From assembly GCA_963663765.2 (NCBI GenBank), contig CAXXUA010000005.1, positions 1,440,001-1,504,000 on the forward strand: DNA of 64,000 bases, read 5' to 3'. This document shows positions 10,947 to 56,793 of this stretch, in pieces (positions within the stretch are counted from its first letter, which is position 1; the number at the start of each line of letters is the position of its first letter). This DNA comes from Candidatus Poribacteria bacterium (GTDB lineage: Bacteria > Poribacteria > WGA-4E > WGA-3G). Below the pieces are notes generated by a model. The model searched no databases. It saw only the letters and a list, made by a program, of their open reading frames with translations, and had not been told where the DNA came from. Made by a program: the position numbers and the translations under genes.

Positions 10947-11690
10947 GAGTGTGTAAAGTTTTTGCACCATAGACGTCAATTTAAGAACAGGACTTACGCC
11001 CCCGATGGTAGGCGTGCTTTGTAAGCGCACCCCCCGATGGTAGGCGTGCTTTGTAAGCGCGCCCCATAAGCGTCAATTTAAGGATTTTCACCTCTTGTGG
11101 GAGGGGTTTTCAACCCCGAATTTATGCGCTTTTACACTCAAATCGAGGTTAAAACCCCTCCCACAAGAAAAATTACAACAATATTTTCTTAAATTGACGC
11201 CTATGGGTGTGTAAAGTTTTTGCACAGAGGTACAAACTTTTGTTCTCTTTAGTCCCGTAGGGACGCAATGTTTATAGATAGACGTTATCACATCACCTCT
11301 CTTTAGTTCCGTAGGAACGACATAGAAGGATAAACATATCGTCCCAACGGGACTAAAAAGACGTGGGGATATGTATTTCTATAAACATATCGTCCCTACG
11401 GGACTGAAGAATATGGTTAATATTAACAATATTTCTTTATATTGACACCTAATGAAGTTTGACAATCAAAATCGGTAGTTGTATTCGTAGGGGTTGGGTT
11501 CCCCAACCCGTTTGGTTTTTACGTTTGCGTAGATCATGTGTGGAAACCACGCCCCTACGAATACACAACTTGAACGTCAAAACTCATTAGGACTCTTTGT
11601 CCGCAATCTCTCATTTAATCAGTCGCGGCGGGGCAAAGAGACTGCCCTACAATGGAGAGTGGGATGTTTGTGCAAAAACTTTACACACCC
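10947..11690. mobile_element. Nested MITE stack (outer family F containing A, B and G parts and several REP types)
   Basis: Outer TIR G(A/G)GTGTGTAAAGTTTTTGCAC...GTGCAAAAACTTTACACACCC with 9-bp TSD TTATGAATG. Inside: A left end with 2 REP1 (10988), family B 11065-11205, GTAGGGACG/CGTCCCTAC repeats, family G ~11451-11588. Confidence 0.85.
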
Positions 11691-11820: not shown

Positions 11821-12780
11821 TTACTTGCTTCCAAGAAGATGAATCAAAATTGCTTTCATGCTATGCAGACGGTTCTCCGACTGCTCAAATATAATTGACC
11901 GCGGATCATCAAGCAACTCATCCGAAATCTCATAACCGCGATGTGCTGGCAAACAATGCATGATGCGACAATCAAGACCATCAAGCAGTGACAGGTTCAA
12001 CTGATACGGTAACATCATGTTGATACGACGTTCCCGCTCCTCAGCGAAGTTCGGATCTGCAAAAAATTCCATATCTATCCAAGTATCTGTATAGACAACA
12101 TCACTTTCCGCAATGACTTCTTGCAGTACCGATACACTATGATCGGCAACTATGGAAACTGCTTTATAACAACCTTTCTGCTCTGCTTCAGACAACAGTT
12201 CTTCATCAACAGCCGCAGGATTAATTTCTGGTGCAATAACAGACACTTCAAGTCCAACCTTCATACCGGCCGCAATTAACGAGTTGCACACATTGTTATG
12301 CACACCGATAAAACAAACCTTCACACCATCCAACATACCGATATGTTCTTGTATCGTCATCAAGTCTCCAAGTGCTTGGGTCGGATGGTATCTATCGCAA
12401 CACCCATTAATTATAGTAACTGAAGATGCTCCGGCTGCATTGCAAATATCAGCATGTTTCAGGAAACGCGCTAAAATACCATCAACGTACGCAGACAGAA
12501 CGCGAATTTCATCGTTGAGATCAGCCAAACCAAAATTCGTTGTTCGCCAGTCTAAATACAGCGGATACCCACCCAGTTGCACAATACCTATTTCACCAGC
12601 ACAACGTGTCCGTGTAGAGGTCTTTTGAAAAAGCAACGCAAGACTTAACCCGCTCGCAGCGTGCCTGTACTTTTCGGGACAATTCTTGATCTTAATACCG
12701 TTTTCTACCGTTTCGAGAATCTCCGTTTCTGACCAATCTTTAAGTGTAACTAAATGCATATCTGCCTCCACAGTGGTCAT
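11821..12780 (-). CDS. argF: Ornithine carbamoyltransferase
   Basis: KTSTRTR, HPTQALGD, NNV, YTDTW, MHCLPA, QSENR. Confidence 0.9.
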   Translation of the reverse strand: MTTVEADMHLVTLKDWSETEILETVENGIKIKNCPEKYRHAASGLSLALLFQKTSTRTRCAGEIGIVQLGGYPLYLDWRTTNFGLADLNDEIRVLSAYVDGILARFLKHADICNAAGASSVTIINGCCDRYHPTQALGDLMTIQEHIGMLDGVKVCFIGVHNNVCNSLIAAGMKVGLEVSVIAPEINPAAVDEELLSEAEQKGCYKAVSIVADHSVSVLQEVIAESDVVYTDTWIDMEFFADPNFAEERERRINMMLPYQLNLSLLDGLDCRIMHCLPAHRGYEISDELLDDPRSIIFEQSENRLHSMKAILIHLLGSK

Positions 12781-12885
12781 ATATTCTGTTATTGTTTAGA
12801 CTTGGGGTAAAAAAGGAAATGGTAATTATAATCTACAATTCGTGCAATGTCAAATGTTTTTTACATGGTTATTCAGTTTTAAGAA

Positions 12886-13967
12886 CAGGACTTACGCAAA
12901 AACTGTAGGCGTGCTTTGTAAGCGCGCGACCAACTGCACTCCAATTGCAGGCGTGCTTTGTAAGCGCGCCACCCAACTGCACCCCAATTGCAGGCGTGCT
13001 TTGTAAGCGCGCCACCCAACTGCCCCCAACTGCAGGCGTGCTTTGTAAGCGCGCAACCAACTGCCCCCCAATTGCAGGCGTGCTTTGTAAGCGCGCCCCG
13101 CACTCACCCGCACTCCCCTGCAGGCGTGCTTTGTAATCGCGCCCCCAACTGCAGGCGTGCTTTGTAAGCGCGCCCCGCACTCACCCGCACTCCCCTGCGG
13201 CGTGCTTTGTAAGCGCGCCCCCTAACTGCACTCCCCTGCAGGCGTGCTTTGTAAGCGCGCCCCATAGGCGTCAATTTAAGGATTTTCACCTCTTGTGGGA
13301 GGGGTTTTCAACCACGATTTTTTAGTGCATTTCCGCTCAAATCGAGGTTGAAAACCCCTCCCACAAGAAAAATGACAACAATATTTTCTTAAATTGACGC
13401 CTATGGTGCTTTGTAATCGCGCCCCGCACTTAACCGCACTCACCCGCAGGCGTGCTTTGTAATCGCGCCCCTCAACTGCAGGCGTGCTTTGTAAGCGCGC
13501 CCCCTAGCTGCACTCCCCTGCAGGCGTGCTTTGTAATCGCGCCCCCCAACTGCAGGCGTGCTTTGTAAGCGCGCCCCCCAACTGTAGGTGTGCTTTGTAA
13601 GCGCGCCCCCAACTGCAGGTGTGCTTTGTAAGCGCGCCCCCAACTGCAGGCGTGCTTTGTAAGCGCGCCCCTCCCCTGCAGGCGTGCTTTGTAATTGCGC
13701 CCCCCAACTGTAGGTGTGCTTTGTAAGCGCGCCCCTCCCCTGCAGGCGTGCTTTGTAATCGCGCCCCCCAACTGTAGGCGTGCTTTGTAAGCGCGCCCCC
13801 AACTGCAGGCGTGCTTTGTAAGCGCGCCCCCAACTGTAGGTGTGCTTTGTAATCGCTCCCCCAACTGCAGGCGTGCTTTGTAAGCGCGCCCCCAACTGCA
13901 GGCGTGCTTTGTAAGCGCGCCGTTGCCAATACTGTGTTTATCGGCGCACTTATAAAGCACGCCTACC
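12886..13967 (+). repeat. Tandem direct array of about 25 REP1 copies behind a MITE A left end
   Basis: G(C/T)AGG(C/T)GTGCTTTGTAA(G/T)CGCGC counted about 25 times with C-rich modular linkers; interrupted by MITE B (13263-13405); closed by one inverted copy at ~13942-13967. Confidence 0.95.
13263..13405. mobile_element. MITE family B (TIR CATAGGCGTCAATTTAAG) with REP3 inverted pair
   Basis: Perfect TIR; internal GTGGGAGGGGTTTTCAAC...GTTGAAAACCCCTCCCAC; homolog at 11065-11205. Confidence 0.85.
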
Positions 13968-14068
13968 GAGATGGGGTATTTAGCACTTGACTTTTTCTTA
14001 AGTTGACACCTATGGGGTCTCTGTGTCCCGCCACAACTAATTAAATAAGAGATTGCGGGAACAGGACC

Positions 14069-14308
14069 CATAGGTGTTGTCATCATAAGGAAATATTGTT
14101 AATATCAACCATACTCTTCAGTCCCTACGGGACTAAATGGTTTTCTTGCTAAGTATTTATTGTGTGTTTCCATTGACGATCTACTACTTAGACAGATGAC
14201 TACTGGGTTCATCAGCATTGGACTTTTATTTTACGCTAAAATTAATTGCCGAAAGAACCACTAAAGAGAACAAAAATTTGTACCTCTGTGCAAAAACTTT
14301 ACACACCC
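14069..14308 (-). mobile_element. Inverted partial copy of the 11205-11450 composite (family F end)
   Basis: ACTAAAGAGAACAAAAATTTGTACCTCTGTGCAAAAACTTTACACACCC is essentially the reverse complement of ~11205-11253; CTTCAGTCCCTACGGGAC matches ~11392-11409 reversed. Confidence 0.75.
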
Positions 14309-14401
14309 GTTACATGGTTATTCAGTTTTCAATTTATTGTGTAATTCTATCACAGTCGTTAGTCCTTGTGTTAACTTGTTTTTGGGTGTTAACTCATTCT
14401 T

Positions 14402-14531
14402 TGTCTGAACCAGGATTTTCAGGATTGCCAGATTATCAAGATTATTCTCATCAAATACTATTTCAAAAGAGAGCATAGACACATATCAAAAACCCTTGAA
14501 GAGGTTAATCCTGAAAATCCTGGTTCAGACA
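14402..14531. repeat. Inverted-repeat element (TGTCTGAACCAGGATTTTCAGGATT)
   Basis: 25-bp perfect inverted ends. Confidence 0.75.
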
Positions 14532-14584
14532 TCTACAAAAAACAACATATATCAGACTAATAGAGTAAGGAATTATATAATTAT

Positions 14585-14613
14585 TTGACTTTATTGGTAA
14601 GATATGATATAAT
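14585..14613 (+). promoter_or_regulatory. Sigma70 promoter of the Rrf2-cys operon
   Basis: TTGACT-17 bp-TATAAT with extended -10 TG; AGGAGG RBS downstream. Confidence 0.75.
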
Positions 14614-14656
14614 TATTGTCACCAAAATAGGTAGGGGTTAATTAGGAGGGAAGTAC

Positions 14657-15094
14657 ATGCATTTGTCAGCTAAACTGAAATATGCAGTGTGTGCAATGTT
14701 AGAACTCGGTTTACAGTATCATAACCAATTCATCTCGGTCACGACGTTAGCAGAAAAACGGTGTATTCCAGGTCCATTTTTAGAGAAATTACTATTACAA
14801 CTCAAACACGCGGGATTAACAACAAGCCGTCGTGGACCTGATGGTGGATATAGTCTCGCACTGCCACCTGAGAAAATCCGCATAGGCGACATCTTTTCCG
14901 CTGTAGAGGGACCAGTCAATTTCACTAAAGGATTTGAAACACAAGAATCTACTGAAATAGGGGAATTCTTTGCTGAGATAGAGAAAGACGTACGCGAGGC
15001 ACTAAATACAAAAACCTTGCAGGAACTCTGTTCCCACGCAAGGAAATGTAAGCAAATGTCGCAACCACCACATCAGCATCCGTTCTTTATATGA
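14657..15094 (+). CDS. Rrf2-family regulator (CymR-like)
   Basis: FLEKLLLQLKHAGL..SRRGPDGGYSLA..IRIGDIFSAVEG; lacks the IscR three-Cys motif; overlaps cysK (ATGA). Confidence 0.9.
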   Translation: MHLSAKLKYAVCAMLELGLQYHNQFISVTTLAEKRCIPGPFLEKLLLQLKHAGLTTSRRGPDGGYSLALPPEKIRIGDIFSAVEGPVNFTKGFETQESTEIGEFFAEIEKDVREALNTKTLQELCSHARKCKQMSQPPHQHPFFI

Positions 15095-17357: not shown

Positions 17358-17573
17358 CAAACTTTATGAAGATTAATTTATTAATTCGGTAATAAATATT
17401 CCTACACGGTAGGCGGGGAATGCCTAAATGGCATTCATACCCGGGAAATGCCTAAATGGCAATCATACCGTTGATTACTTGATTTGGTGCTTTGTAAGCG
17501 CGCTGTTGGAACTTGAAGTGCCGGCGTGCTTACAAAGCACACCTACCAGGGTGGGTTAGATAAAATTACCTAA
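17358..17573. mobile_element. MITE family C, left part (REP1 inverted pair plus micro-insert); right part apparently at 25473-25502
   Basis: CAAACTTTATGAAGATTAAT end; similar to the reverse of the 56523-56793 copy; breaks off at CTGACATTTTTCA. Confidence 0.7.
17415..17486 (+). repeat. Micro-insert (2 hairpin units + 2 octamers) inside REP1
   Basis: GTAGGC|GGGGAATGCCTAAATGGCATTCATACC...TTGATTTG|GTGCTTTGTAAGCGCGC. Confidence 0.9.
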
Positions 17574-22403: not shown

Positions 22404-24893
22404 ATGAAATACAATAGAAAATACATTCACATTCCCTTCATTTTGGTCCTGCTATTTTTCTGCACATGGACTCCGCAGCAAACCTTTTCCGAACAAACCA
22501 AAATACAGATAAATGATGTCTTAGTCAAAAAAGCAAAAGCATCTACAGTCCGAAGAAAATACATTCACATTCCCTTCATTTTGGTCCTGCTATTTTTCTG
22601 CACATGGACTCCGCAGCAAACCTTTTCCGAACAAACCAAAATACAGATAAATGATGTCTTAGTCAAAAAAGCAAAAGCATCTACAGTCCGAATTATTGCT
22701 GGAATTACTGCTGGTGATTTAAGGTCAATCTGGTCTGGCACTGGGTTTTTCGTCAGTCCTGACAAGATTGTGACAAATCTCCATGTCATCATAGAACCAG
22801 GGTCGATTTTCGCAAAACAGGACGATAATGATACAATCTGGGTAATTGAAGGCGTTTCCGCCTATGATATGAAACACGACCTTGCTATCCTAAAAGTTAC
22901 GAGAGAAGGAATTCCACTTCCACTGGGAGATAGCGATACTATAAAAACTGATGACCCCGTTTACGCTTCCATGTATCCCAGTGGGAAACAATATACGATA
23001 ACAGCCGGTATTATACACAAATCAGAAAAAGAATTCCTTGTGACATCAGCAGAGAGTTTTAAAGGCAGCAGCGGTTGTCCCATGCTAAATGACGCAGCTG
23101 AAGTCATCGGAGTTAATTTCGGCGTAAGAGGCAATCACACTCTCGCCATCCCTTCAAACATTCTCAAAACATTACTCTCTCAGGAAAAAGAAACAGTGCC
23201 ATTAGTCCAATGGTACAAACAAGACGATATCCGTGCTTATGTCATTTTCCAACGGGCTCATGATAAATATGAAACAAATGACTACGAAGGTTCAATCAAA
23301 GATTTTACTGAATTGATAGAGTTTAATCCCAACTTCTTGAGTGCATACTATTTACGAGGAGACTTATACTCCTATCAAGCAGAAATTGAAGCACAACAGG
23401 GAAGAATGGAAAAAGCACATAAACATTTTCAGGATTCCATAGCAGACTATACTGCCGCAATTGAATTAGACCCAAAAGAAGATACTGCATATAGATTTCG
23501 TGGACTTGTCCATACACATTACGGTGAAGCTGAAGCTGAAATACACAACTACAATGCAGCTCAAATACTATATAAAACAGCAATAATTGATTACAATCAA
23601 GCTATAACCTTAGACCCAGAAGACGATGAAAACTATGCTGGACGTGGTAGGACAAAATACCTATTTGCGCAATCCCATGTTGAAGAAAAGAACTTGAACA
23701 CTGCACAAAAACTTTACGAAGAAGCAATTGACGATATAAATGAAGCTATAAGACGAGATCCAAGAGATGTTAAGAACTACAAAAAACGCGGCTGGGCAAA
23801 ATACCTACTCGGAAAACTCCATACTTCACAAGGCAACGATGCCGATGCAAAGAAAAACTACCAAGCAGCAATAATTGATGCTGACAAAGCAATTGAATTA
23901 AACGCCGAAGTAGCATACATCTATCATACGCGTGGAGCAGCAAAGGCTGCACTCAGTGACTATCATGGTGCCATTGAAGATTTTGATGCTGCACTAAATA
24001 TAAAACCTGATGATCAAGACTTTTATACTGACCGTGCCAAAGCAAAAGAAGCACTCGGAAAACTTGATGAGGCAAAAGCAGATTTCACAAAAGCCAAGCA
24101 GGCTATAGGTCAAGGTGTAACCTCTACTAAAGAGATAAACAAAGCAGCAAAAGAGATGGTACGCATACCCGCAGGTGAGTTCCAGATGGGAAGCAACAAA
24201 GTAAACGACGCATCACCCGAACATAAAGTTTATCTTGACGAGTTCCTTATCGATGCTTATGAAGTGACTAATGCTCAGTTCAAAATGTTCATTGACGCGA
24301 ACCCCGATTGGAGTAAAAATAACATTCCGCGCAAATATCATAATGGACGTTATCTAAGGTTCTGGGATGGTGATAACTATCCTAAAGGAAAAGAGAACCA
24401 TCCGGTTGTATATGTGAGTTGGTATGCAGCGATGGCTTATGCAAATTGGGTAGGGAAAAGGTTACCAACGGAAGCAGAATGGGAAAAGGCTGCTCGCGGT
24501 GGCAAAATAGGTCAACGGTATGTGTGGGGTAAACATCGCGATCCCAGCAAAGCAAATTATGGGTATTTTGACACAAATACCTTACCCGTTGGAACTTATC
24601 TACCAAATGATTACGGTCTATATGACATGGGCGGCAATGTTTGGGAATTATGCTTGGATCAATACGACAGAAAGTTCTATAGTCAATCTCCAAAAAAGAA
24701 CCCTATTGCTGGGGATCCCAGTATGCAAGAATTAATGGAAAATTACCTGACGATTCGTGCTCCCCGAGTATCCCGTGGGGGGTCGTGGAACACACCAGGT
24801 CCAGCAAAAACCGCAGACCGTGAAAGCAATAGACCACATAATACCAATGGCTGGCAGGGGTTCCGATGTGCTAAAAGCATTCCCACAGAGTAG
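22404..24893 (+). CDS. Secreted trypsin-like protease + TPR repeats + FGE-sulfatase (SUMF1) domain
   Basis: TNLHV / HDLAILK / GSSGCP triad; many TPRs; IPAGEFQMG, EVTNAQF, RLPTEAEWEKAARG, GNVWE, RGGSW, GFRC. Confidence 0.9.
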   Translation: MKYNRKYIHIPFILVLLFFCTWTPQQTFSEQTKIQINDVLVKKAKASTVRRKYIHIPFILVLLFFCTWTPQQTFSEQTKIQINDVLVKKAKASTVRIIAGITAGDLRSIWSGTGFFVSPDKIVTNLHVIIEPGSIFAKQDDNDTIWVIEGVSAYDMKHDLAILKVTREGIPLPLGDSDTIKTDDPVYASMYPSGKQYTITAGIIHKSEKEFLVTSAESFKGSSGCPMLNDAAEVIGVNFGVRGNHTLAIPSNILKTLLSQEKETVPLVQWYKQDDIRAYVIFQRAHDKYETNDYEGSIKDFTELIEFNPNFLSAYYLRGDLYSYQAEIEAQQGRMEKAHKHFQDSIADYTAAIELDPKEDTAYRFRGLVHTHYGEAEAEIHNYNAAQILYKTAIIDYNQAITLDPEDDENYAGRGRTKYLFAQSHVEEKNLNTAQKLYEEAIDDINEAIRRDPRDVKNYKKRGWAKYLLGKLHTSQGNDADAKKNYQAAIIDADKAIELNAEVAYIYHTRGAAKAALSDYHGAIEDFDAALNIKPDDQDFYTDRAKAKEALGKLDEAKADFTKAKQAIGQGVTSTKEINKAAKEMVRIPAGEFQMGSNKVNDASPEHKVYLDEFLIDAYEVTNAQFKMFIDANPDWSKNNIPRKYHNGRYLRFWDGDNYPKGKENHPVVYVSWYAAMAYANWVGKRLPTEAEWEKAARGGKIGQRYVWGKHRDPSKANYGYFDTNTLPVGTYLPNDYGLYDMGGNVWELCLDQYDRKFYSQSPKKNPIAGDPSMQELMENYLTIRAPRVSRGGSWNTPGPAKTADRESNRPHNTNGWQGFRCAKSIPTE
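22416..22691 (+). repeat. Perfect 138-bp in-frame tandem duplication
   Basis: 22416-22553 equals 22554-22691 (46 codons including the signal peptide). Confidence 0.95.
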
Positions 24894-29198: not shown

Positions 29199-31464
29199 AA
29201 CGAGCATTTTTTATTTCTGTTTATTTTTTCATTTTTTTCAGTTATGTGTCGGCAGACGCACAGAATGCAACTATCACATTAGAATCGGATTCGACGTGGA
29301 TACCGGAATATGGCAACGTTTGTAAAATCAAGGTTAGGATAAACGGCAATACCCCGAATACACATATCACTTTCCAGTTAGAATCATCAAGCTGGCCCGG
29401 CACCAGTATGAACTCTGGTGACAAAACGAACATTTCTGATGACCTCAAATTTCTTCATGCGGAGAACACCGTCACGCAAGGCGAAAAAACCGGACCCAAT
29501 GATGGTGAAGACAATCCTATGTTGGTGGTTACGCCTCTGGGCAGTCCGATCCGAATGATAATTTGAAACGGATACAAGGTCCCGCTCGTACAAATTATGT
29601 ATACATTTATAGCAAACATATTAAAGATTGGCTTGACCAAAGGAATCGATCCAATCAGTATAACGAAGCTGTTAGATTGAGTATCGGACATGAAGTTGCA
29701 CACTGCCTCTCACTTCCGCACGTTATCAGTAGTTCATCCGTAACAAATGAAGTGAGGTTCAGATATAATGAGGGTGGCAGTGGTGGCGGCACCCTTGTCA
29801 TAAAAACCCACGCGTCTGGTGGCGAAAAAAGTCTGATGCGGAGTAACATTTTACATCAACTCGGCTCGAATCCAGGTTTTCCTGCGTTTCACCATTATCA
29901 GTATATGATGATACCGAGCAATCTTGAACCAAATGATATACGTCCGCGTGCTTCCAGCATATTACCTGATTTCAATATAATTTTTGATGAGAGCAATACT
30001 CCTGGTTATCAAAATCAATAAGGGAGCAAACCACAAAGCACTAATCCAAGCAATGGAGGCACAGACACCGTACCGTCAGACCAACCGTATGGTTTGTCTT
30101 ATTCAATTGTAGATGGTCAATTCCGTCTTTTATGGTCCGATGGTGGCGGTACGGTTACCAGTTTCGAATATCAGTATCGTGAAAATGGTGGAAGTTGGAG
30201 TTCGTGGTTATCCGCGGGGTCAAGCACATTTATTGATCTACTGAATTTAGTAAACGGAACGACTTATCAGTTTCAGGTACATGCAATGAATGGTACACTT
30301 GTAATTGCTATATCTGATACTTTTGAAGTGAGAGTGCCGACAGTGCCAGATGCACCGACAATTACGCGGGTTGACTCAGGTGATGGTCAGGTAAATATAA
30401 ACTGGACAGCTCCAAGTAATAATGGTGGTTCTGACATTACTGATTACGAATACCAATATCGTGAGAGCAATGGTGGCAACTGGGAAACTTGGACTTCGTT
30501 TGGAGGCAGTTTCACCCACACAAGTGAAGATATTGCGGGGTTAACGAATGGTACGGCGTATGAGTTCCAGGTGCGTGCTGTGAATGCTATTGGAGAAGGT
30601 GCAGAATCAAATACTTTCTCAGCAACACCTGTACAACCGATCATAATATCACCACCGCCGCAACCTTTTTGGAGTGATATTCCGGATCCGTATACGCTCA
30701 CCGTTGGTGATAGTTTCAGTTTAGATTTGAATAGTTATGTGACAGGTAGACCGACGATAACCAGAAATGGAGGTAAGCAACCTGCTGGATTATCCTTTAG
30801 TAATGGTGTATTGAGTGGGACGGTGTCAAGTGTTGAGAGTAGAGGTATACGTTTCCTTGCAACCAATCTTGGGGGTTCCGAAAATAGCGAATGGATTGAA
30901 ATTTCTGTTTCAGCTGATCCACCACCTCCGGCCCCTGTTTGGAGTGATATACCGGATCCGTATACGCTCACCGTTGGTGATAGTTTTAGCTTAGACTTGA
31001 ATAGTTATGTGACAGGTAGTCCGACAATAACCAGAAATGGAGGTAAGCAACCTGCTGGATTATCCTTTAGCAATGGTGTATTGAGTGGGACGGTGTCAAG
31101 TGTTGAGAGTAGAGGTATACGTATCCTTGCTACCAATCTTGGGGGTTCCGAAAATAGCGAATGGATCGAGTTTAACATAGTAGCAGTTCCGTTGACAATG
31201 ATAGTCCCTATATGGAGTGATATACCGGATCCGTATACGCTCACCGTTGGTGATAGTTTTAGTTTGGATTTAAATAGTTATGTGACAGGAATTCCAATAA
31301 TAACCAAAACAGGTGGTCTTATACCTGCAGGATTGTCCTTTAGTAATGGCATTTTGAGTGGCACAGTGACAACGGCTGAGACTCGTGGTATACGATTTAC
31401 AGCAACCAATGCTGCAGGTGTCACTCTAAGTGAATGGGTAAATTTCACCATTCAGTCCGATTAA
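29195..31464 (+). pseudogene. Secreted metalloprotease-FN3-Ig-repeat surface protein broken into three ORFs
   Basis: Signal peptide (29195); GHEVAHCLSLPH (29563 ORF); TAA at 30019-21 reads through in frame to 30094; two FN3 and three WSDIPDPYTLTVGDSFSLDL..PAGLSFSNG (He_PIG-like Ig) repeats. Confidence 0.75.
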
Positions 31465-42560: not shown

Positions 42561-42766
42561 CAGGACTTACGCATCCAACGGTAGGCGCGCTTTGTAAGCG
42601 CGCTGGACTTACGCATCCAACGGTAGGCGCGCTTTGTAAGCGCGCTGGACTTACGCATCCAACGGTAGGCGCGCTTTGTAAGCGCGCTGGAAACTTAAAA
42701 AACACTGAATATTACATCATTTTCATCACAATTCTTGATTAATTCATGAAAATTGCGTAAGTCCTG
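42561..42766. mobile_element. MITE family A with triplicated left end + REP1
   Basis: Three tandem GGACTTACGCATCCAACGGTAGGCGCGCTTTGTAAGCGCGCT units; 6-bp TSD ATACCA. Confidence 0.92.
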
Positions 42767-56522: not shown

Positions 56523-56793
56523 CAAACTTTATGAAGAATAATAAATAAATGAGGTAATACTATCCAACCCAACCTTTGTAGGCGGGGAATGCCTAAATAG
56601 CATTCATACCCCGGGGAATGCCTAAATGGTATTCATACCCGGGGAATGCCTTAATGGCATTCATACCCGGGGAATGCCTTAATGGCATTCATACCGTTGA
56701 TTTCTTGATTTCTTGATTTCTTGATTTGGTGCTTTGTAAGCACGCCTACCGGGTGAAAAATATTTATTACCGACTTAATAAATTAATCTTCAT
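56523..56793. mobile_element. MITE family C with micro-insert (4 hairpins + 4 octamers, 56584-56728)
   Basis: CAAACTTTATGAAGAATAAT...ATTAATCTTCAT; REP1 split at GTAGGC|GTGC. Confidence 0.8.

Follow-up and report, generated by a model that had tools for sequence, protein, structure and literature searches.

Results

A head-to-tail REP array lies between two outward-pointing genes

We analyzed a 64,000-nt stretch of the genome of a Candidatus Poribacteria bacterium (hereafter the window; contig C5:1440001-1504000), and give positions in the window unless another contig is named. In this window, a 1.9-kb gap between two outward-pointing genes, encoding a carbamoyltransferase and an Rrf2-family regulator, is occupied by a head-to-tail array of about 25 same-direction copies of a repetitive extragenic palindromic (REP) sequence, which we call REP1. 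The array (12886-13967) is confirmed as real, and the same genome holds 112 arrays of three or more copies. We give roughly even odds (about 0.5) to the reading that such arrays grew in place, by duplication of a REP-plus-linker unit inside carriers that resemble miniature inverted-repeat transposable elements (MITEs), with a REP-associated tyrosine transposase (RAYT) as the likeliest agent.

As for the anatomy of the array, the 21-nt core (GGCGTGCTTTGTAAGCGCGCC), with up to 3 mismatches allowed, matches the window 36 times, whereas 100 shuffles give an expectation of 0.00. The array itself contains 24 intact plus-strand copies (12908-13921) and a 25th direct copy (13406-13422) without its first bases, the 5' stem of which is split by a nested element at 13263-13405, while a single minus-strand copy with 2 mismatches (13943-13963) closes the array at its 3' end. 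This bears out a previous reading made from the sequence alone (the sequence-only reading), which had described about 25 direct copies with a sole inverted partner at the end, C-rich linkers drawn from a small vocabulary (here CCCAACTGCA, CCCCAACTGCA, and CCGCACTCACCCGCACTCCCCTGCA), and linkers that shorten from 5' to 3'. Indeed, the successive periods of copies 1-9 are 42, 43, 42, 42, 46, 31, 45, and 42 nt, and those of copies 10-24 are 31-32 nt with a single exception of 42. Tandem Repeats Finder (TRF) resolves the array into a period of 42 nt repeated 8.7 times (12902-13263) and a period of 31 nt repeated 14.8 times (13446-13921), with a higher-order period of 190 nt, or six units, repeated 2.5 times; the segments 13518-13671 and 13708-13861, which are offset by six units, are 92% identical. 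Two features had been overlooked by the sequence-only reading, namely a nested MITE that interrupts the array and a right end that belongs to a different carrier than the left end. The successive parts of the array are as follows (TIR, terminal inverted repeat; iREP, inverted REP).

12886-12907, plus strand: left carrier end with a CAGGACTTACGCA-type terminal repeat ("MITE A") and the GTA of the GTAG tag; the terminal repeat recurs before other REP1 copies
12908-13261, plus strand: REP1 units 1-9, head to tail, with linkers of two or more 10-11-nt modules (core matches, TRF)
13263-13405, no strand assigned: nested MITE with TIRs ATAGGCGTCAATTTAAG and CTTAAATTGACGCCTAT and an inner 30-nt palindrome, within a REP1 5' stem (inverted repeats, arms 13259-13280 and 13388-13409)
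13406-13448, plus strand: 3' remnant of the split REP1 unit (TGCTTTGTAATCGCGCC) with its linker (unit-by-unit reading)
13449-13921, plus strand: REP1 units 10-24 with the 190-nt higher-order repeat (core matches, TRF, 92% direct repeat)
13922-13942, no strand assigned: 21-nt spacer that makes up the loop when unit 24 pairs with the iREP (fold)
13943-13967, minus strand: single iREP followed by CTAC, the complement of GTAG, which forms a long hairpin with unit 24 that resembles a REPIN (a REP doublet forming a hairpin; core match, inverted repeat, fold)
13968-14015, no strand assigned: right carrier end terminating in CTTAAGTTGACACCTATGG, of a carrier family different from that of the left end; recurs after at least 12 other arrays and is 91% identical to the right end of the nested MITE

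Since its left and right ends come from different carrier families, the carrier is chimeric. On the plus strand, the fold of the 31-nt unit has a stem of 9 bp, one of them a G.T pair, a loop of 3 nt, and a free energy of -9.2 kcal/mol that is matched by 2 of 200 shuffles; the minus strand folds at -8.7 kcal/mol with an internal mismatch. The segment 13896-13970, which comprises unit 24 and the inverted copy, folds at -23.6 kcal/mol on the plus strand and at -25.5 kcal/mol on the minus strand (z of -5.8 and -6.9, respectively).

The surroundings of the array consist of two genes and two promoter-like sites.

11821-12780, minus strand: argF-like gene for an ornithine/aspartate carbamoyltransferase, pointing away from the array (PF00185, 137 bits; PF02729, 112 bits)
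12853 to 12825, minus strand: sigma-70-like site TTGACA-17-TATAAT, 12 of 12 consensus positions, between the array and the carbamoyltransferase gene (consensus match only)
14585-14613, plus strand: promoter-like sigma-70 site, 11 of 12, ahead of the Rrf2 gene (consensus match)
14657-15094, plus strand: gene for an Rrf2-family regulator, also pointing away from the array (PF02082, 104 bits)

Because both genes point away from the array, the gap is divergent. The Pfam matches identify the argF-like gene, upstream of which the array had been placed, with a possible effect on its expression, by the sequence-only reading. Since the 12/12 site stands between the two, the array is upstream of the putative core promoter and not within it, and since the putative promoters at 12853 and 14585 flank it, the whole repeat block is upstream of both. 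A perfect 20-nt direct repeat (TTACATGGTTATTCAGTTTT, at 12861-12880 and 14310-14329) encloses the entire block. GGTTATTCAGTTTTAA, with which contig C7 and other repeat blocks also end, probably marks the end of a further small mobile element. In Logan contigs from three public runs of two studies, the left flank is reproduced exactly as far as 12916 and the right flank from about 14401 onward. The carbamoyltransferase and Rrf2 genes are apart in relatives (on separate contigs in the two closest genomes), which leaves no orthologous locus for comparison.

REP1 is a GTAG-type REP that forms more than 100 arrays

The genome (6.35 Mb in 15 contigs of up to 1.8 Mb) contains 1,638 copies of the REP1 core at up to 3 mismatches (1,421 at up to 2 mismatches). 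Copies stand alone at 229 sites (singletons), in pairs at 29, and in clusters of 3-47 at 112. The sequence-only reading had allowed that an absence of similar arrays elsewhere would undo it; with 112 arrays of at least three copies in the genome, this objection fails and the reading survives. The REP1 arrays that TRF reports with a length of 150 bp or more number 107 and add up to 54,357 bp. Of the 67 arrays with at least eight copies, 34 have direct copies followed by a single inverted one, 29 have direct copies throughout, and 4 are mixed. The four nucleotides ahead of the core are GGTA in 159 of the 229 singletons, and in array copies they are TGCA (815) or GGTA (244); together with the first G of the core they make a GTAG or GCAG tag, and REP1 is therefore a GTAG-type REP. 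It shows three of the attributes by which that superfamily is recognized: a short imperfect palindrome, a 5' GTAG/GYAG tag, and a high, mostly extragenic copy number: 2 of the 229 singletons are within filtered open reading frames (ORFs), and 7 of 87 arrays of at least five copies are inside long ORF proxies that are probably spurious.

REP1 arrays are housed in a few recurring MITE-like carriers, and copy numbers within one carrier family range from 5 to 32, each array having its own linker type. The linkers between direct neighbors (n = 1,179) cluster at 10-11 nt (461), 20-22 nt (297), 25 nt (67), and 33-36 nt (94). Two-module linkers are near-duplicates of a one-module linker, as in ACCCAACTGCC-ACCCAACTGCA, and the 10-11-nt modules recur hundreds of times across the genome, CCCCAACTGCA alone 88 times. 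Unit lengths in other arrays follow patterns such as 56/42/56/78. In the window, the CAGGACTTACGCA terminal repeat precedes a single REP1 at 1263, 16896, and 39907, two copies at 11011 (11011/11043), and three at 42584, which upholds the series of one, two, and three copies behind the same terminal repeat that had been read from the sequence. The last of these (42563-42691) consists of three 100% identical 42-nt units, each comprising the MITE terminal repeat and a REP1-like core, with a GGA microhomology at the junction. This triplication looks like a very recent duplication and is a possible first step towards an array.

In many other arrays too, the nested MITE of about 143 nt (ATAGGCGTCAATTTAAG / CTTAAATTGACGCCTAT) repeatedly interrupts the 5' stem of REP1 cores at one and the same point. 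Its TIR starts like the head of the REP (TAGGCGT), and copies of it are present in relatives; it either targets REP cores or recombines with REPs through the 7-8 nt that they have in common. A 28-nt hairpin unit (CGGGGAATGCCTAAATGGCATTCATACC) is found in direct tandem, four times at 56583-56695 and twice at 17414-17469. Within a larger element, this unit also interrupts REP1 cores just after GGTAGGCG, the same site as that of the 143-nt MITE.

Arrays are polar, regionally oriented, and enriched in divergent gaps

The shortening of units from 5' to 3' recurs across the genome. In the 34 arrays of at least eight copies that end in an inverted copy, the period averages 43.8 nt over the first third and 37.6 nt over the last; the first third has the longer period in 20 of these arrays and the shorter one in 3, and the two are equal in 11 (Wilcoxon p = 3e-4). 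The 29 all-direct arrays show a weaker trend (longer in 12, shorter in 7, equal in 10; p = 0.16). Furthermore, identical adjacent units are somewhat commoner at the 3' end, with fractions of 0.21 vs. 0.14 (9 vs. 4 arrays, 18 ties, p = 0.036). Since neighboring arrays are not independent, these p-values are indicative only.

REP1 arrays are oriented in both directions (57 forward, 55 reverse), and neighbors agree in 82 of 100 pairs, a figure that 10,000 shuffles never reach (mean 49.6, maximum 71). Two other GTAG-REP families (308 and 945 copies) have the same regional bias, with Spearman rho of 0.70 (13 bins) and 0.55 (28 bins), so that a regional strand bias, seen in 150-kb bins, is common to three unrelated GTAG-REP families; one of the places where their orientation switches is at 931-977 kb on C4. 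As for placement, with gene positions taken from ORF proxies, divergent gaps hold 35 of 83 arrays of at least five copies, vs. 49 of 222 singletons and 387 of 3,343 gaps overall (odds ratios 2.6 and 5.6).

The REP1 burst is specific to this lineage

REP1, at up to 2 mismatches, is present in 0-34 copies in each of 24 genomes of the same genus, several of which are single-contig, and was not found in 16 genomes of other families of the order. Five further same-genus checks, one of them among the 24, gave 2, 1, 84, 74, and 0 copies. Overall, the 28 same-genus genomes have 0-84 copies, among the listed matches of which there is no head-to-tail run, the copies listed being scattered or paired in inverted orientation at a distance of about 100 nt. 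Flank identity (85-88%) singles out two genomes as the closest relatives, with 2 copies and 1 copy; both are fragmented assemblies, from which repeats may be lost. The stem in relatives is mostly the fully paired GGCGCGC; the variant amplified here is GGCGTGC, with a G.T pair. An exact search with the core that follows GTA returned at least 17 loci, all dispersed intergenic singles, 16 of which are from Candidatus Poribacteria among the matches listed. The stretch is also contained in a public run labelled sponge metagenome, and the organism is accordingly a sponge symbiont of poribacterial type. In a metagenome scan, the exact REP1 dimer was found at 0 loci and a looser 13-mer dimer at 4 loci, all of which are an unrelated 18-nt tandem repeat. 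The approximately 110 arrays are the product of a burst specific to this lineage.

RAYT genes adjoin REP arrays

The Pfam Y1_Tnp profile matches six places in the genome, and at two of them the gene adjoins REP arrays. The first, on contig C10 (24997-25277), is a RAYT-type gene that starts about 80 nt past a REP1 array and matches NCBIfam NF047646 in two fragments (E values of 1.9e-5 and 4e-8). Its closest homologue found among 40 genus genomes (G008, 64% identity over 53 aa) is flanked by GTAGGCGCGTTTTGTAAACGCGCC, a hairpin with the loop of REP1 and nearly its stem. The second, on contig C4 (621598-622074), is an intact RAYT gene that scores 122.5 bits against a cut-off of 80 and is flanked on both sides by direct arrays, in opposite orientations, of a different GTAG-REP (GTAGGAGGGAACTCCGATTCCC). 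In this region (C4:620161-623931), the left flank has units of about 120 nt and the right flank a 37-nt unit in 47 copies; the locus is a REPtron with direct arrays as flanks. RAYT genes above the family cut-off are present in 25 of the 40 genus genomes, and in two relatives direct REP runs of 3-5 copies with 43-nt spacing stand beside their own RAYT genes. Ten RAYT loci of relatives are at most 57% identical to the C10 fragments, and each is accompanied by a different GTAG-REP.

Other identities of the repeat

We considered, and rejected, several other identities. A bacterial interspersed mosaic element (BIME) would show alternating orientation, and here 24 + 1 copies are on one strand and only the last is on the other. 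Likewise, the REPIN is not the replicative unit here, the long inverted pair being found only at the array end and the other 24 copies having no partner. The spacers of the array are recurring 10-11-nt modules and not unique sequences, and Rfam gives 0 matches in the window at gathering thresholds, which speaks against a CRISPR array. A protein-coding array is at odds with periods of 31, 32, and 42-46 nt, mostly not multiples of three, the ORFs across the array being by-products of the repeat. As for an intrinsic terminator, no T-run follows the hairpin on either strand, and the two terminator-like sites in 12700-14700 (2.3 expected) are not the unit hairpin. Finally, with 29 HIP1 sites (GCGATCGC) in 6.35 Mb, the genome is not cyanobacterial; in Nostoc and its relatives, small dispersed repeats of 21-27 nt that can form hairpins reportedly reside in MITEs, amid short C-rich tandem repeats.

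Discussion

Comparison with known REP systems

Tandem REP arrays themselves have already been published (Bertels & Rainey 2011; Di Nocera 2013), and we compare the arrays described here with three published systems. In Pseudomonas fluorescens SBW25 (PMC3116915), same-orientation, evenly spaced REPs form 11 mixed GI-GIII arrays and two GI-only arrays of at most 12 copies, with units of 72 + 112 bp, and forward arrays are in one region of the chromosome and reverse arrays in another. From these, Bertels & Rainey 2011 (PMC3116915) infer a second, non-transpositional mechanism of cluster formation. The poribacterial genome resembles SBW25 (PMC3116915) in the regional orientation of arrays and in having RAYT genes flanked by REP clusters. 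However, it differs in the number of arrays (112), in their size (up to 47 copies), in minimal units of 31-32 nt, and in that the arrays typically end in one inverted copy and are inside MITE-like carriers.

The GTAG-REP superfamily (Di Nocera, De Gregorio & Rocco 2013, PMC3733652) comprises short stem-loops with an unpaired GTAG/GYAG tag that are RAYT-associated and present in many phyla. That survey defines head-tail (HT) dimers and clusters reiterated in tandem, the repeats of Thauera sp. MZ1T having been found through a tandem-repeat database, and the word Poribacteria has 0 occurrences in it (PMC3733652). Compared to the survey, the HT arrangement dominates here, with 1,179 direct neighbor pairs.

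The third system is E. coli. TnpA-REP (Ton-Hoang et al. 2012, PMC3333891) acts on single strands and needs the GTAG tag and a stem mismatch; its cuts (marked here by arrows) fall at C↓T in linkers and, where the iREP has its foot, at CC↓TAC, and it can join strands. For tandem BIMEs, two nick-primed schemes have been proposed, in which extension from a nick is followed by a second nick and by strand transfer (PMC3333891). As in E. coli BIME-2 (PMC3333891), unit number per locus is variable and units are well conserved within a locus. However, whereas BIME-2 alternates REP/iREP pairs, only the last pair is inverted here and the unit is a single REP with its linker. Moreover, cleavage by TnpA-REP is known from biochemistry (PMC3333891), whereas the RAYT of this lineage is known from sequence alone.

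The REP1 core was not found in a text search of a collection of papers, and a literature search on Poribacteria and REP returned only an unrelated review. The element is thus of a known REP kind, and what sets it apart is an unusually extreme arrangement, with HT dominance, a 31-nt minimal unit, more than 100 arrays, and a gradient within them.

How the arrays may have grown

In the reading that we favor, a REP-plus-linker unit would be duplicated repeatedly in place, mostly near the REP/iREP pair. RAYT would bind the tagged hairpin on single-stranded DNA and nick at C↓T beside it, and rejoining would follow limited synthesis or strand exchange, as proposed for BIME amplification in E. coli. 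Slippage and unequal recombination would then add or remove blocks, such as linker modules and the 190-nt repeat. Growth in place is supported by the array-specific linkers, by copy numbers of 5-32 within a carrier family, and by the 190-nt higher-order repeat. As for the part of RAYT, the units have a tagged hairpin with a G.T pair where relatives mostly have G-C, most linkers carry AAC↓TGCA, every unit has GCC↓T(G/A)C on the bottom strand, and the sole complete REP/iREP pair sits at the minimal-unit end of the array. Because the units fit, on paper, the needs of TnpA-REP and the pair is at that end, RAYT-driven addition of single units near the pair is favored. What the data show are the anatomy and family of the array, the regularities across the genome, and the adjacency of RAYT genes to REP arrays; that RAYT rather than replication slippage is the amplifier, and where units are added, we infer.

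Several observations weigh against this reading. Some linker types (CCCGATGGTA, for example) lack a C↓T in their top strand. The RAYT gene linked to REP1 on C10 is cut by the contig end, so that only its 5' flank is visible, and has a 1-nt frameshift in an A-run; it may therefore be a pseudogene, and a second REP1-type RAYT was not found in the genome. The gradient in unit homogeneity is weak, and core mismatches show no gradient along arrays. The array has no spanning contig among the Logan contigs of four public runs, which are short and in which depth summed over the repeat does not equal copy number. REP orientation is unchanged across dnaA and the neighboring seven-box DnaA cluster (C5:1281624-1281800), and array orientation is not associated with GC skew at third codon positions (GC3; plus- vs. 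minus-strand ORF proxies) at 50, 100, or 200 kb, so that the expected coupling to the lagging-strand template finds no support. A replication-strand account of array orientation was rejected on these grounds; bulk GC skew is flat across the genome, neither skew carries a usable signal, and the fraction of coding strands is also without a replichore pattern. Hairpin-promoted slippage could yield all the regularities seen, and no comparison made here separates the action of RAYT from slippage or unequal recombination. The latter point also qualifies the sequence-only reading, which had proposed an amplification acting at the REP. This proposal, which amounts to the published nick-primed model of TnpA-REP (PMC3333891), fits the genome-wide gradient and the RAYT genes beside REP arrays.

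The close rival is an ordinary minisatellite, in which a dimer made by microhomology-mediated duplication of the REP with upstream sequence would have expanded through hairpin-aided slippage and unequal recombination, RAYT having merely spread the carriers once. We regard this as quite possible, if short of probable. The GGA microhomology in the perfect 3 × 42-nt case (42563-42691) suits slippage, the linkers behave as a 10-11-nt microsatellite of 1, 2, or 3 modules, and blocks have been duplicated at a higher order, as seen in the 190-nt repeat here and the 56/42/56/78 patterns elsewhere. In addition, the REP1-linked RAYT may be broken, and other hairpin units, such as the 28-nt unit repeated four times at 56583-56695, are also in short tandem. 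However, a minisatellite leaves three things unexplained: the burst in a single lineage, whose relatives have the carriers and the REP (0-84 copies) with no run among the matches listed; long arrays in at least two GTAG-REP families, one of them right beside its own RAYT gene; and units that are systematically minimal next to the REP/iREP pair.

Alternatively, the arrays might be kept for a cell function, as structural or regulatory spacers in divergent promoter regions that absorb supercoils, bind proteins, or act as promoter barriers. This would agree with the enrichment in divergent gaps (35/83) and with the position of the array between outward-facing promoter-like sites at 12853 (minus strand) and 14585 (plus strand). 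However, the enrichment could equally reflect tolerated insertion sites or negative supercoiling that exposes single strands, copy number ranges from 3 to 47 with no favored size, the closest relatives lack arrays, and the flanking genes are not neighbors in relatives, which together make a function improbable. Finally, that the repeat was inflated or invented by the assembler, as the failure of contigs from four public runs to span it and a homopolymer frameshift in the RAYT gene (hinting at error-prone long reads) might suggest, is very hard to reconcile with 112 arrays with individual linkers, nested insertions, and unique flanks on contigs of up to 1.8 Mb, with a junction between flank and first unit that is identical in three runs from two studies, and with an array interior that contains unit-specific substitutions and a nested MITE.

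Implications

REPs and their RAYTs are widespread, yet what is known so far of the growth of REP clusters comes solely from an E. coli model in vitro. With more than 100 polar arrays, array-free relatives, and a second REP/RAYT pair, this genome offers a test bed for enzyme-driven amplification vs. slippage, and it could show what sets REP orientation along a chromosome. A bolder form of the favored reading, which we consider doubtful, is that RAYT acts as an in-place "satellite maker," adding single REP-plus-linker units strand-specifically beside the REP/iREP hairpin, in place of copying REP doublets to new sites, and thereby giving rise to more than 100 polar arrays. Were this the case, array anatomy would here display directly, for the first time in a natural system, the nick-primed amplification proposed for TnpA-REP. 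It would also tie the growth of REPs to the gaps between divergent promoters, which are negatively supercoiled, and the orientation common to three REP families would mark a chromosome-scale polarity unlike the one predicted from dnaA. For annotation, the arrays account for about 54 kb of puzzling repeats and for many likely contig breaks in short-read assemblies of these symbionts.

Other repeats were seen along the way. The window contains a perfect 138-nt tandem duplication (2.0 copies, 22416-22692) and a 270-nt repeat (2.7 copies, 85%, 30650-31394), whose period is a multiple of three and which may encode a repeated protein domain. Elsewhere in the genome, TRF arrays with a 126-nt (42-codon) period and a GH...WD-like consensus are abundant across many contigs and presumably correspond to WD40-repeat genes, and repeats of about 37 nt with variable spacers, at C4:126676-133463 (consensus GTTTCAATCTCGTAATCGAGATACTTCTGATTTCAAG) and C4:1025845-1029790, are CRISPR-like in look.

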